Below, one piece after another: positions 55,598-60,180 of a DNA stretch of 64,000 bases; the stretch's first letter is position 1, and every line of letters begins with the position of its first letter. Under the pieces are notes generated by a model that was not told the DNA's origin, did no database searches, and saw nothing but the letters and a program-made list of their open reading frames with translations. This DNA comes from an uncultured Pseudobdellovibrionaceae bacterium (GTDB taxonomy: Bacteria > Pseudomonadota > Alphaproteobacteria > Micavibrionales > Micavibrionaceae). A program made the position numbers and the translations under genes. The stretch is from assembly GCA_964648505.1 (NCBI GenBank), contig CAZYMI010000006.1, positions 4,223 through 68,222 of the forward strand. Direction: 5' to 3'.

Positions 55598-57247
55598 ATG
55601 GTTGCTAAAAATGTAGTGCACGGGCGCGAAGCACGTGAAAAAGTACTTAAAGGTATCAACATTCTTGCTGATGCCGTAAAAGTTACGTTGGGGCCAAAAG
55701 GTCGCAATGTGGTTATTCAAAAATCATTTGGTGCGCCACGCATCACCAAAGATGGCGTGACTGTCGCTAAGGAAATTGAACTCAAAGATGTTGATTTCAA
55801 TCTAGGCGCACAGATGATCCGCGAAGTCGCATCCAAACAAAACGACCAATCGGGTGACGGCACGACAACCGCAACCGTGCTTGCTCAAGCAATCGCAAAT
55901 GAAGGCTTTAAAGCTGTTGCTGCTGGTATGAACCCAATGGACCTCAAGCGCGGAATTGATATGGCTGTGCTTGCTGTTGTCGAGGATATTAAAAAACGTT
56001 CCAAAAAAGTATCCACCAATGCTGAAATCGCACAGGTGGGTACAATTTCAGCCAATGGTGACAGCAATGTCGGCGATATGATCGCAAAAGCCATGGAAAA
56101 AGTCGGTAAAGAAGGTGTGATTACGGTTGAAGAAGCAAAATCACTTGATACCGAACTGGAAGTTGTTGAAGGTATGCAATTTGATCGTGGGTACCTCTCC
56201 CCCTATTTTATCACCAATGCTGATAAAATGGTGTGCGAGTTGGAAAATCCATACATTTTGCTGAATGAGAAAAAGCTTTCTAATATCCAATCCATTCTGC
56301 CTGTACTTGAAGCGGTGCTTCAATCTGGTCGTCCACTTTTGATTGTGGCTGAAGATGTTGAAGGTGAAGCGCTTGCAACATTGGTCGTCAACAAGCTGCG
56401 CGGCGGCCTGAAAATTGCTGCTGTAAAAGCGCCCGGCTTTGGCGATCGTCGTAAGGCGATGCTTGAAGACATGGCTATTTTAACAGGCGGTCAGGTTATC
56501 TCTGAAGATCTGGGCATCAAACTTGAAAATGTTACAATCGACATGCTGGGTTCAGCCAAGAAAATTCAGATCACCAAGGATAATTCAACAATTATTGATG
56601 GTGCTGGCAAAAAAGCTGAAATCGAAGCACGTTGCGGCCAGATCAAAGCGCAGATTGAAGAAACAACATCTGACTATGATCGTGAAAAACTGCAAGAACG
56701 TTTGGCAAAACTTGCTGGCGGTGTAGCAGTGATCCGTGTTGGCGGCGCAACAGAAGTTGAAGTAAAAGAAAAGAAAGATCGTGTTGAAGATGCGATGCAT
56801 GCAACCCGCGCCGCTGTTGAAGAAGGCATTATCGCAGGCGGTGGCTCGGCTTTATTGTTTGCAACCAAATCACTTGACACTGTTAAAGGTGCCAACAATG
56901 ACCAGCAAGTTGGTGTCGACATCGTTCGTCGTGCTATCCAAGCTCCTGTTCGCCAGATTGTGGAGAACGCAGGCAAGGAAGGATCGATTGTTGTCGGTAA
57001 ACTTCTTGAGCAAAAAGATACAAATTTTGGTTTTGATGCTCAAAACGACAGCTATGGCGATATGGTTAAAGCAGGTATTATTGATCCTGTGAAAATCGTT
57101 CGTACTGCCCTTCAGGATGCGGCGTCTGTTGCAGGTCTTCTGATCACAACAGAAGCCATCATCACAGATGCGCCAAAATCCGAAAAATCGGGTGGCGGTA
57201 TGCCAGGCGGCGGCATGGGTGGCGGCATGGGTGATATGGATTTCTAA
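55598..57247 (+). CDS. groEL: Chaperonin GroEL
   Basis: 549 aa with the [24 protein letters not shown] motif and a C-terminal GGM repeat. Confidence 0.97.
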
Positions 57248-57382
57248 AATCCTATCCCAAGCTTTTATTCCGAAAGTTACAAAAACCCCGAGAAATCGGG
57301 GTTTTTTATTATATTGAGTAATAAAATTATAAATTACGTTAAATATATTTGAATTAAAAATACCATTTGATGCATAAAAAAT
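57011..57382. repeat. Direct repeat copy 1: groEL 3' end, terminator and 75 bp downstream
   Basis: 57021-57382 is identical base for base to 58346-58707 (offset 1325). It extends to 57011/58336 with one mismatch (A versus C at 57020/58345). Confidence 0.95.
57286..57307 (+). terminator. Rho-independent terminator after groEL
   Basis: CCCCGA-GAAA-TCGGGG followed by T6. Confidence 0.8.
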
Positions 57383-57461
57383 AGCATTTTATATTGACAC
57401 TTTGACAAATGAACGGCTAATAGAAGAGAGAATAAAATTAACTTACAAAGACTCATTTTCA

Positions 57462-58181
57462 ATGAATTTCAGCACATCATCACAACAAGCTGGCGACCTT
57501 GTAGATCCGCGCTCGATTACTGGAGGCGTTCCAAGGGCTTATGAGGCTTACACCACTATACCTGCTGATGTTACAAAAGTGCGCCAAGCATTTGACCGGC
57601 ACAAAACTATACAAGTTGCACTAAGAAAAAAAGATATCTTTAACCAGGCTGCAAGAGATGGTCGATTTATTATATTAGAAAATGCTTGGGCCAATATATC
57701 TGCGGGCGTGGCTCTGTATAATCATCAAACTGAATCTGGCGTAAATATAACTGAAATAGGGTCGGCCTTTATTGTCGAAAGCGATAAGGGGCAGGATCTA
57801 TTTCGTAAGTCTATAGCTTTTGCTCTTTTAAAAGCCGCAAACGATCATCCCAACAACTTACTCGTGTCTGCTGTTTTCAGTGATAACGAAGCCTCTAAAA
57901 AACGCATGCGCGAACTCGGTTGGACACCAATAGAAGAAGACGCTGAAATTGATAGAGCCTGCAAAAGATCTTATCAAACTAAATCTACAAGAACGAGCTT
58001 GGATTGGTTTGTGTTCCGTCCTGAGTCCGTCCGTGAATACGCGCCACAATTGATTAACATCATTCGATCAGGAAGTTTTGTTGTGCCATCTGACGACTTG
58101 AATGATATTCTGAGCGCATACCTTATGCCACAAACGCACAGAAGACATAGAAGACTCGTTCCACAAAACGTTGCTGCTTAA
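57462..58181 (+). CDS. GNAT-fold protein with an unknown C-terminal extension (paralog A)
   Basis: Aligns with paralog B at 58785-59531: PRAYEAY.....V, GRFIILEN, EIGSAFI, N.AS..RMRELGW. The start is probably the ATG at 57462; the ORF-track TTG at 57402 overlaps the TTGACA promoter-like hexamers. Confidence 0.62.
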   Translation: MNFSTSSQQAGDLVDPRSITGGVPRAYEAYTTIPADVTKVRQAFDRHKTIQVALRKKDIFNQAARDGRFIILENAWANISAGVALYNHQTESGVNITEIGSAFIVESDKGQDLFRKSIAFALLKAANDHPNNLLVSAVFSDNEASKKRMRELGWTPIEEDAEIDRACKRSYQTKSTRTSLDWFVFRPESVREYAPQLINIIRSGSFVVPSDDLNDILSAYLMPQTHRRHRRLVPQNVAA

Positions 58182-58335
58182 CCTGAAACGTTCGCAGCTG
58201 ATTTCCACAAAACTTCAAATTGCCTTTTATACGCATGATGAAGTAATTGATCTTTAATCACATAAATAACAAGATCTTTCTTATCAAACAAAACGAAGGC
58301 CAATTTTTCGTGGTAGACCACAAAAGAGACGGAAT
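58178..58335 (-). pseudogene. 3'-terminal remnant (about 50 codons) of an XRE-regulator paralog, truncated at the duplication junction
   Basis: My minus-strand translation is [52 protein letters not shown]. It aligns with the C-terminus of the 59536-60180 protein (TIYVFADKIAFLNFSDDDVLVLMISQKDIADSFRIMFDISWNNVAFIK*). It has the same convergent position relative to the GNAT-like gene. Confidence 0.5.
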
Positions 58336-58610: not shown

Positions 58611-58632
58611 CCCCGAGAAATCGGGGTTTTTT
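58611..58632 (+). terminator. Duplicated copy of the groEL terminator
   Basis: Same CCCCGA-GAAA-TCGGGG plus T6, inside repeat copy 2. Confidence 0.75.
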
Positions 58633-58784
58633 ATTATATTGAGTAATAAAATTATAAATTACGTTAAATATATTTGAATTAAAAATACCATTTGATGCAT
58701 AAAAAATGTATTTTTCGTTGACAGTTATGACTTTTAGCCTTAAGAATGCCTCTGAAATAAAAGGATAACTCTTTTTAAAAAATC

Positions 58785-59531
58785 ATGGCCGACATCGAAC
58801 TAGATCTAAATAGCGCCTTTAAAGATAGCGTGAGTGAAACCCCAAGGTTTCGCGCGCGTATGTCAACACACGCCGACCTAGAAGCCGTGATCGCTTTTTT
58901 CAAAAGCCATACTGACCCTAATGTTCATATCCGAACACTTGAAGCAATCGAAGAAGCTTGCAAAAAAGGTCGCGTTATCATCCTGAAGGACAGTAACGAT
59001 AAGATGATCGGGATGTCTGCTCGATACGCACACAATATGAATGGCTTTTCATTCCAAGAATTGGGCTCTGTTATGATTGATAAATCAGCAACGCGCCAAG
59101 GTCTTTCAAGCCAAATGGTTGCGTTGCAAGTTGCCGCAGCCTACTTCCTTGATAAAGAAAAGCCAAATATTTTGGTTGCTGACTTTGTTGAAGGCAATTT
59201 AAACGCTCAAGATATGTTCAGAAAGCTAAACTGGAAATTATTTGATGATGCAGGTGCTATCCGCGAGCAGTGCTACACGACACATACGGAAGCATTTGAA
59301 GGTAAAACAAATTGGTGCATGTTCTCGGAAAGCGATCTTTTTGGAATGGCCCGTAAAATGATTCAGATTTTTACATCTCGAAACAACTTAACACCTGTTG
59401 AGCCTTTATTTACAGCCTATAATCGATTAGTTGAGATTGCACTATCATCAGATGAGCGGCCTGACCCTGCACACTTTGCGGCCATCAAAGCGGCTCAACG
59501 AAAATTAGGTATAGATAGAGCCGTCGCTTAA
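58785..59531 (+). CDS. GNAT-fold protein with an unknown C-terminal extension (paralog B)
   Basis: GNAT-like core: ELGSVMIDKSATRQGLSSQMV (motif A-like R.QG) and NLNAQDMFRKLNW. A TTGACA-N17-TAAGAA promoter-like sequence lies at 58718-58746. Confidence 0.68.
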   Translation: MADIELDLNSAFKDSVSETPRFRARMSTHADLEAVIAFFKSHTDPNVHIRTLEAIEEACKKGRVIILKDSNDKMIGMSARYAHNMNGFSFQELGSVMIDKSATRQGLSSQMVALQVAAAYFLDKEKPNILVADFVEGNLNAQDMFRKLNWKLFDDAGAIREQCYTTHTEAFEGKTNWCMFSESDLFGMARKMIQIFTSRNNLTPVEPLFTAYNRLVEIALSSDERPDPAHFAAIKAAQRKLGIDRAVA

Positions 59532-59535
59532 TTTT

Positions 59536-60180
59536 CTATTTAATAAAAGCGACATTGTTCCACGAGATATCGAACATAATTCTAAAGCTGTCCGCGATAT
59601 CCTTTTGAGAAATCATAAGAACAAGAACGTCATCATCGCTAAAATTCAAAAAAGCTATCTTATCTGCAAAAACATAAATTGTTCTGTCTTTAAAAAGCTT
59701 TGATGGAAACCATTTATACTCAGCAAATCCACCTGCAATAAAATCTTTTTCGTTTTCCTGAACAATAATTCTAAAATTTGGTCTTTGTTTTAGTTCCTTC
59801 ATGCGCGTAGCATGCATAATATACCATTCTTCACCACACCATTTTTTGATCAGCTTTGGTACACCATTAAAAAGACAGATATCATCAGACGTCTCTTTTG
59901 CAGCCTGATAAACCTCGTCTATGAACTTTCTAAAACCATCCTGACCCTGATAGCTCATGACGTTCACCTTGCGGCGACGAACACCTTCTGTATCAAGAAA
60001 TTCAATGCCTACTTTTGTGAAAGCCTGAATCATCTTTGATGATGTTTCACTATTTGGCTTACTCTCTCCGTTCTCAATACGGGCAATGCCGGTTTGGGAA
60101 AGGCCCGCTGCTGAAGCTAAATCGGCCTGTGACCAGCCCAAAAGCGCGCGAGCTGCTTTAATTTGCTCAATTGTTGGCAT
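59536..60180 (-). CDS. XRE-family helix-turn-helix regulator with a roughly 150-aa C-terminal domain of unknown function
   Basis: N-terminus IKAARALLGWSQADLASAAGLSQTGIARIENGESKP...GIEF. Convergent with paralog B. Confidence 0.83.
   Translation of the reverse strand: MPTIEQIKAARALLGWSQADLASAAGLSQTGIARIENGESKPNSETSSKMIQAFTKVGIEFLDTEGVRRRKVNVMSYQGQDGFRKFIDEVYQAAKETSDDICLFNGVPKLIKKWCGEEWYIMHATRMKELKQRPNFRIIVQENEKDFIAGGFAEYKWFPSKLFKDRTIYVFADKIAFLNFSDDDVLVLMISQKDIADSFRIMFDISWNNVAFIK

Follow-up and report, generated by a model that had tools for sequence, protein, structure and literature searches.

A probable module-exchange site beside groEL, with two GNAT modules, in a Micavibrio-like alphaproteobacterium

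The stretch of DNA analysed here, called the window in the following, comprises 64,000 nucleotides (nt) of contig CAZYMI010000006.1 (assembly GCA_964648505.1) from an uncultured Micavibrio-like alphaproteobacterium, and the system in question is the slot between the 3' end of groEL and a convergent gene for an XRE-type regulator. This slot is probably a module-exchange site, at which two modules with a cargo gene of the GNAT fold were recently stacked by one homologous exchange and one exchange at a 9-nt microhomology. In Micavibrio-like alphaproteobacteria the exchangeable unit would consist of one cargo gene, usually for an enzyme, together with the PLD-like, sensor-type C-terminal domain of the regulator; the stretch at the 5' end of the gene that codes for the helix-turn-helix (HTH) would stay with the chromosome, and the groEL end would be the other fixed border. 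The window would thus hold two modules, the intact pair GNAT-B/XRE_B and a groEL-proximal orphan made up of GNAT-A and the last 55 codons of XRE_A. The parts of the locus are the following (positions are those of the window; aa, amino acids).

55598-57247, plus strand: groEL, full-length open reading frame (ORF) of 549 aa, conserved left anchor of the variable slot.
57011-57382, plus strand: first copy of the repeat (R1): groEL from codon 472 to codon 549 and its stop, followed by the terminator and by 76 promoter-proximal nt.
57281-57306, plus strand: first copy of the groEL intrinsic terminator, an 11-pair stem followed by a T-rich tail.
57369-57379, plus strand: candidate operator (11-mer GATGCATAAAA), followed after 13 nt by the -35 box of gene A.
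57462-58181, plus strand: GNAT-fold gene A, 239 aa, cargo of the orphaned module.
58178-58345, minus strand: XRE_A' remnant, the last 55 codons and stop codon of a second XRE-family gene, with the HTH and most of the C-domain lost.
58336-58344: junction microhomology CAAAAAGAT, 9 nt common to the XRE_A' remnant and groEL, equivalent to 57011-57019.
58336-58707, plus strand: second copy of the repeat (R2): the groEL 3' fragment, which is non-functional (58336-58572), then the terminator (58606-58631), then 76 nt that include the 11-mer (58694-58704).
58606-58631, plus strand: second copy of the terminator, within R2.
58718-58747, plus strand: predicted sigma-70-like promoter of gene B (TTGACA, 18-nt spacer, AAGAAT; 10 of 12 matches).
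58785-59531, plus strand: GNAT-fold gene B, 248 aa, cargo of the intact module.
59536-60180, minus strand: XRE_B, 214 aa, with an XRE-type HTH (residues 1-62) and a PLD-like/TrmB-C-like domain (residues 73-214 approximately).
60331-60341, minus strand: third copy of GATGCATAAAA, about 150 nt upstream of the XRE_B start codon, in an inverted repeat.

Comparison of the window with itself at an offset of 1325 nt, the start-to-start spacing of the two repeat copies, gives 371 matches over 372 nt, the sole mismatch being A at 57020 against C at 58345. The exact blocks are 57011-57019 with 58336-58344 and 57021-57382 with 58346-58707, the latter of 362 nt. Each copy contains the final 237 nt of groEL with its stop codon, then the terminator hairpin and 76 nt more, 135 nt of the repeat being non-coding. 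Beyond the repeat no nucleotide match links the A segment to the B segment or to any other part of the window, and the proteins encoded by A and B share 24% identity over 192 aa (E 8e-14). The first-pass annotation of this DNA had described the order groEL, GNAT-like A, XRE remnant, groEL 3' fragment, GNAT-like B and intact XRE, with breakpoints inside groEL and inside the convergent XRE gene and with a fully identical 362-bp flank next to cargo of about a quarter identity, and the ORFs, the repeat and junction coordinates and the alignments agree with it on all these points. Its reading of the whole as a 1325-bp tandem duplication holds for the layout and for the junction, at which the end of one unit is joined to the start of the next (XRE_A' remnant to groEL 3' fragment, 58336-58345); as a simple duplication it fails, since similarity does not extend over the whole length, 372 of the 1325 nt only being shared and the cargo proteins being 24% identical.

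The two ends of the repeat differ in kind. On the left, the base following the microhomology CAAAAAGAT, the C at 58345, is still part of the XRE codon GAT, and CAAAAAGAT itself, read in the frame of XRE_A', gives D-L-F codons which fit the family pattern. On the right, identity ends at 57382/58707, just past the 11-mer GATGCATAAAA; the -35 boxes of A and B follow 10 nt further on. Similarity between the two promoters stays at about 75% over another 24 nt and is then lost altogether. Homology-facilitated illegitimate recombination (HFIR), according to PMC6382021 (citing de Vries & Wackernagel 2002), is characterised by a homologous anchor plus microhomologies of 3-10 bp, and the 9-nt illegitimate joint and the right end, located where the A and B promoters are still similar, both have this form. 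One exchange would have taken place in sequence common to both modules, from the groEL end over the terminator to the promoter-proximal 11-mer GATGCATAAAA, and the other would be an illegitimate join at the microhomology between XRE_A and groEL, giving a product of the type generated by HFIR or by microhomology-mediated template switching. Three routes would yield it: HFIR with a donor fragment ending inside XRE_A, template switching, in which case both repeat copies would derive from the recipient, and a tandem duplication followed by a swap. Of the two origins offered in the first-pass annotation, the one by a homologous and an illegitimate crossover fits best, the illegitimate junction lying in the 9-nt microhomology.

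The XRE_A' remnant is informative on the age of the parts. It is 24% identical to residues 162-211 of XRE_B (E 4e-7) and 40-48% identical to the C-termini of the XRE proteins of four other genomes (loci L055, L069, L079 and L066), and its reading frame is intact with the family-conserved residues kept. The greater likeness of the remnant to foreign regulators than to XRE_B places it in another old subfamily and, together with the 24% identity of A and B, shows the two modules to be old and separate lineages which did not diverge in place. An open frame in a functionless remnant, and a perfect 372-nt repeat of which 135 nt are non-coding, argue in turn for a recent joining; the repeat would be a by-product of the joining event, which would explain its perfect state beside cargo of about 24% identity. 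The locus L055 (7001-7902), whose XRE C-terminus is the closest match to the remnant (48%), was seen to have its XRE gene 293 nt from groEL with no cargo gene, that is an empty slot.

A strain represented in SRR29398966 shows no difference from this genome over positions 58678-60830 (2153 nt with B, XRE_B and intergenic sequence) and 16 differences over positions 60831-64000 (3170 nt; Fisher p 4e-4); for the left side the comparison carries less weight. The invariant B/XRE_B region is consistent with a young or recently spread module. Eight of the 16 differences lie in an NTP-transferase gene (62334-63053), the boundary of diversity against contig L001 being near 60831. By composition there was no clear sign of foreign origin, GC content and GC at third codon positions of A, B and XRE_B being within about 1.5 standard deviations of the genes of the window, with the exception of total GC of XRE_B, which is about 2 standard deviations low.

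An integrative island with duplicated attachment sites was also considered and rejected: there is no recombinase ORF in 57011-60500 and no tRNA in the window, and the repeat is 372 nt long and flanks the A segment only. Rfam and tRNA scans of the window were empty, which indicates no RNA gene and no island target of the tRNA type.

The first-pass annotation had allowed for the second copy being an assembly artefact. The junction between remnant and groEL 3' fragment was recovered independently in Logan assemblies of short reads from three samples, and it is therefore not the artefact of one assembly. The unitig concerned is as follows.

57353-58375: Logan unitig L004, found in three samples (n=3) with 100% identity, running from A through the junction of remnant and groEL 3' fragment.

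It comprises the last 30 nt of R1, gene A, the remnant and 40 nt at the start of R2, namely the microhomology, the mismatched base and the 30 nt after it. A further Logan contig (L008) gives the path from groEL through R1 into A, and the three Logan contigs carrying B all have their first base exactly 30 nt short of the R2 end, which is what a branch of the assembly graph would produce. Among the assemblies compared no contig spans R2 with unique sequence on both sides, and the tandem order thus rests on the logic of the graph.

XRE_B is composed of two well separated parts. The HTH matches PF01381 (HTH_3) over residues 7-55 with 52 bits against a cut-off of 23, its structural matches being C-proteins, HipB and P22 C2. 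In the AlphaFold2 model of the protein (pLDDT 92.8) the C-domain is confidently modelled, and its best Foldseek matches, TrmBL2 (E 3e-6), NucT, Nuc and PLD3, point to a PLD-like fold. The likeness to the PLD superfamily is, going by the model, at the level of the fold only: XRE_B has neither the catalytic motif HxK(x)4D nor any HKD or GSxN motif, and the sole invariant histidine of the family (H123) is found in H-A-x-R-M inside a helix. No Pfam match was obtained for the C-domain. More than 400 proteins about 50% identical to XRE_B over the full length are present in metagenome-assembled genomes (MAGs) of the Micavibrio type (NCBI taxonomy places Micavibrio under Bdellovibrionales). In other alphaproteobacterial MAGs tandem arrays of ten (L078:4829-11861) and six (L084:131-5696) XRE/PLD-like paralogues were seen, 25-41% identical to XRE_B and arranged back to back with no cargo between them.

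Gene B encodes a GNAT domain with a helical C-terminal extension (AlphaFold2 model, pLDDT 79.4). Foldseek gave 490 PDB matches to this model at E<=1e-3, and the best 50 of them are all acetyltransferases, mostly annotated as GNAT or N-terminal acetyltransferases. Pfam GNAT models stay below their gathering score (best 18.6 bits against cut-offs of 22-25), as they do for 31 family members. At the position of the acetyl-CoA loop, L-x-G-x-G-L-F is the pattern of the wider family, against T-R-Q-G-L-S in B and K-G-Q-D-L-F in A. Gene A, for which an alternative TTG start at 57402 would give 259 aa, retains all family-invariant residues. A, B and the GNAT protein of the related locus L061 are all about 24-26% identical in pairs; the GNAT protein of locus L007 (P0002) is 49% identical to B, the XRE of that locus is 69% identical to XRE_B, and the promoter region of gene B is kept there. 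A word-indexed protein search returned 2-5 GNAT relatives only, and scans of species-representative genomes and JGI metagenomes returned none; an exhaustive search with hidden Markov models found about 70 cluster representatives of a GNAT-like family, which forms no Pfam family. The distant relatives in other alphaproteobacteria adjoin M20 peptidases and not XRE or groEL, so their context is uninformative for the groEL locus. Examples are L010, L013, L014 and L015, where GNAT-like members of about 20% identity are followed by a Peptidase_M20 gene; in several contigs they are close to the ATP synthase F0 operon, a different and apparently stable context. In SRR12822863 a 1-nt deletion (CC to C at 58127-58128, L008:1745) near the 3' end of A shifts the frame and lengthens the ORF from 239 to 264 aa. 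It may be a sequencing error or early decay, the latter under relaxed constraint on the orphaned gene.

The comparison of the groEL-downstream locus in related genomes, suggested in the first-pass annotation, was carried out on 79 species-representative Micavibrio-like loci. In 42 of these an XRE gene is convergent to groESL, at a distance of 293-5552 nt, and the gap contains at least 13 unrelated gene families, which strongly supports the earlier idea of a hypervariable cargo site next to groEL. The products of groEL in these 42 loci are 75-80% identical to that of the window, and the left-hand synteny (membrane protein, ferredoxin, Usg, groES) is common to the loci. Most of the cargo consists of enzymes; the kinds which could be named are given below, and further types are also present.

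Formyltransferase-like: 10 loci.
Methyltransf_33: 5 loci.
LPG_synthase_C: 5 loci.
Convergent protein of 300-327 aa, function unknown: 5 loci.
SAM methyltransferases of two kinds: 4 and 3 loci.
ATP-grasp: 3 loci.
ApbA-like: 2 loci.
FAD/NAD-binding: 1 locus.
GNAT: 1 locus (L061).

When loci were compared in pairs according to whether they carry the same or different cargo, mean protein identities were as follows.

XRE C-domain: same cargo 55.8%, different cargo 35.3% (p 5e-33).
XRE HTH: same cargo 79.3%, different cargo 78.3% (p 0.29).
GroEL: same cargo 84.4%, different cargo 84.0% (p 0.98).

At the DNA level the HTH-coding part co-varies with both flanks (rho 0.34-0.36) and the C-domain part does not (rho 0.10-0.14). 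Five pairs of loci with GroEL 94-98% identical carry unrelated cargo, and in these the nucleotide homology enters the XRE gene from the upstream flank. Four of the pairs lose it 130-280 nt into the gene and the fifth, L017/L022, at about 540 nt; towards groEL it begins again some 70 nt ahead of the stop codon of that gene. As the C-domain follows the cargo, the HTH follows the flanks and homology ends inside the XRE gene, the exchanged unit appears to be the C-domain together with the cargo gene. None of the 79 loci has a groEL-fragment scar like that of the window, and partial XRE matches in the relatives are N-terminal pieces and not C-terminal remnants. Two loci (L035:8806-9480 and L038:9689-10351) were seen to have a second full-length XRE paralogue adjoining groEL beside the usual XRE-cargo pair, an instance of natural module stacking with no groEL-fragment scar.

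The 11-mer GATGCATAAAA occurs exactly three times in the 64-kb window (0.16 expected), upstream of A, of B and of XRE_B. The first-pass annotation had taken the duplicated upstream region as a possible promoter of both copies; the 76 nt beyond the terminator contain no core promoter, the core promoters and -35 boxes of A and B being located just outside the repeat. What each repeat copy would supply is a terminator and an identical upstream regulatory sequence, which would put A and B in equivalent contexts. Upstream of XRE_B, between it and a 123-aa gene, a 21-nt perfect direct repeat (GCGGCGTTTTTTTGCCCTAAC, two copies 30 nt apart, 60422-60472) forms two terminator-like hairpins.

As for function, a conserved DNA-binding head combined with a sensor-type domain which co-varies with an adjoining group-transfer enzyme is most simply read as a ligand-responsive switch for a ligand-modifying enzyme. 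XRE_B would be a one-component regulator responding to a ligand and binding the 11-mer at its own and at the cargo promoters, the GNAT enzyme would modify the small molecule sensed by the matched C-domain, and gene A, lacking its cognate regulator, would be either cross-controlled by XRE_B or decaying. More tentatively, the whole might be pictured as a socket with cartridges: the HTH, and presumably the operator, would be the fixed socket, and cartridges of sensor domain plus enzyme would be exchanged between species inside the regulator gene, retargeting one circuit to different small molecules, the window representing a mis-resolved exchange which stacked two of them. This general picture is possible, with the balance of probability somewhat on the other side. 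The diversifying selection and the toxin/immunity role suggested in the first-pass annotation found no support: PADLOC gave no match for A or B, the HTH of the XRE is highly conserved, and A and B are too diverged for a dN/dS estimate, synonymous sites being saturated at 24% protein identity and with no nucleotide alignment.

Several points weigh against a recent stacking at an exchange site of sensor-enzyme modules. HFIR usually deletes recipient DNA and does not duplicate it, and a duplication needs a second template, be it a sister chromosome, a circular intermediate or a template switch. Neither a single-module haplotype nor an intact XRE_A was present in Logan assemblies, species-representative genomes or JGI metagenomes. 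The acetyl-CoA loop (Q/R-x-x-G-x-G/A), as judged from the sequences, is degenerate in both A and B. The pairwise statistics are based on non-independent pairs of representatives of different species, and groEL is a slow marker, the flanks of pairs called close by it being 75-87% identical only. GNAT-type modules are convergent with the XRE gene, whereas most other cargo is co-directional with it, and the two kinds may therefore be regulated differently. Finally, the putative operator is assigned from a single 11-mer, and a k-mer survey upstream of XRE in the relatives gave AT-rich and -35-like words only, with no clear common operator.

The alternative which survives best concerns the order of events. 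A tandem duplication of the A module (about 1.3 kb) at the microhomology would have come first, giving [R-A-XRE_A'][R-A-XRE_A], and B with the C-domain of XRE_B would later have replaced the distal copy by crossovers in R or the groEL fragment and in the XRE HTH or the upstream flank. Tandem duplications at microhomologies are frequent, the final structure and the 9-nt microhomology would be the same, and the relatives document swaps with exactly these borders; yet two rare events would be needed within the lifetime of an unstable duplication, and the closest relative found (L007) carries a module of type B, which suggests that B and not A was resident. We regard this two-step origin as rather unlikely, and the stacking of two modules by one homologous and one microhomology exchange is the preferred reading.

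Another alternative concerns what the modules do. If they were toxin-antitoxin or immunity-like pairs, the XRE C-domain would neutralise the enzyme, the HTH would repress, and A would be an orphan toxin module. One homologous domain beside many unrelated neighbours is reminiscent of hyperpromiscuous antitoxin domains (PMC8832971, PMC10440598). The C-domain varies together with the cargo, in most relatives XRE and cargo are a tight pair read in one direction, arrays of 6-10 XRE paralogues exist in L078 and L084, and the XRE HTH weakly matches antitoxin and C-protein families. The cargo proteins, on the other hand, have 230-960 aa and mostly resemble ordinary metabolic enzymes, a PADLOC search for defence systems gave no match for A, B or most of the cargo, and neither A nor B is matched by a toxin or antitoxin model of NCBIfam or PADLOC. 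The GNAT genes are convergent with XRE, with separate predicted promoters and not in an operon, which departs from type II systems with a GNAT toxin; there is one fixed chromosomal site per genome and not a scatter of mobile copies; and A is intact in the absence of its XRE, which is unexpected for a toxin that is no longer neutralised, unless XRE_B cross-protects. A toxin-antitoxin function is thus unlikely, and a sensor-enzyme pair is preferred.

The other origin offered in the first-pass annotation, an old tandem duplication in situ with cargo diverged to 24% and the 372-nt flank lately homogenised by groEL gene conversion, is very unlikely. It would account for the layout, which equals that of a tandem duplication, and for the weak similarity continuing about 24 nt past the repeat end, as for a conversion tract ending in diverged homology. 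A functionless remnant, however, would not stay open with its conserved residues through 76% protein divergence, nor would it resemble XREs of other genomes (40-48%) more than XRE_B (24%), from which it is supposed to descend, and no duplication of a groEL fragment exists in other genomes among the 79 loci. Least probable of all is that the tandem is not chromosomal and results from two molecules, a groEL-R-B chromosome and a free 1325-bp circle (R-A-remnant), or from a mixed-strain assembly: R2 is not crossed by any contig with unique sequence on both sides, a circle with a single-module chromosome yields an identical de Bruijn graph and recombination between R1 and R2 would make exactly this circle, but the junction of remnant and groEL fragment is genuine in three samples, a plain mixture of A and B alleles would not create it, a 1.3-kb circle would be without replication function, and the NCBI contig (92,990 bp) resolves the region as tandem.

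Some further features of the window are recorded here. Two paralogous Pyr_redox_2 genes (ferredoxin-NADP-reductase-like; 52583-53620, plus strand, and 60855-61898, minus strand) bracket the groESL/module region in inverted orientation, with about 65% DNA identity over 500 nt. A very large ORF of 1924 aa is located at 38016-43790 on the minus strand.

By its mechanism the feature belongs to a known kind of recombination scar, and it lies within a probable exchange hotspot at groEL-XRE for which no published description was found in the literature. It provides a dated, base-resolved example of the addition of accessory modules beside an essential gene by homologous exchange and a 9-nt microhomology join. 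At the hotspot the sensor domain of a transcription factor and the adjoining enzyme appear to move jointly, and the DNA-binding part stays. If this is true, the site is a natural system of domain-level regulator rewiring and could supply matched sensor-enzyme pairs from predatory alphaproteobacteria, which have been little studied.

Among known systems, the staphylococcal agr and streptococcal comCD loci have a hypervariable segment made up of part of a sensor and its partner gene, exchanged independently of the flanks. The groEL-XRE segment is likewise bounded by conserved sequence inside genes, but its presumed sensor belongs to a transcription factor of the XRE type in the cytoplasm, whose C-domain it forms, the partner enzyme varies in fold, and no peptide signal or histidine kinase is involved. 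In the cdiA-CT/cdiI loci of contact-dependent growth inhibition and in Rhs loci, the 5' part is conserved, the 3' part varies and is accompanied by a cognate neighbour gene, and displaced, older 5'-truncated modules are stacked. The orphan truncated module left beside the active one at groEL is similar; here, in contrast, there is no toxin domain or secretion system, and the remnant derives from a microhomology join and not from the usual conserved recombination motif, being one scar among 79 loci. TacAT, AtaRT and KacAT comprise GNAT toxins of about 160-180 aa with an intact acetyl-CoA loop, co-transcribed downstream of a ribbon-helix-helix antitoxin. They share with the window a GNAT-fold protein adjoining a small DNA-binding protein, and differ in that the genes are convergent here, the GNAT proteins have 239-248 aa with a helical C-terminal extension and the partner is a 214-aa XRE/PLD-like protein.

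In the TrmB family of archaeal and bacterial sugar-responsive repressors a DNA-binding domain precedes a PLD-like effector domain, which the predicted architecture of XRE_B resembles, and TrmBL2 (PDB 5bpi) is the best Foldseek match of XRE_B (E 3e-6, TM 0.41, about 200 aligned columns); the N-terminus of XRE_B is nevertheless an HTH of the XRE/Cro type and not a winged helix, and TM-scores are 0.40-0.47 only. In the Panacea (PanA) systems one antitoxin domain is partnered with many unrelated neighbour families (PMC8832971), much as the XRE C-domain stands beside many unrelated families, with the differences that the fold is PLD-like and not DUF4065, the neighbours are not known toxins and the chromosomal site is fixed. 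As to mechanism, the classic HFIR products described in that literature (PMC6382021) replace or delete recipient DNA, whereas 372 nt of recipient sequence are duplicated here; with HFIR and template switching the locus shares one homologous exchange, one microhomology exchange (9 nt in this case) and heterologous DNA between the two.

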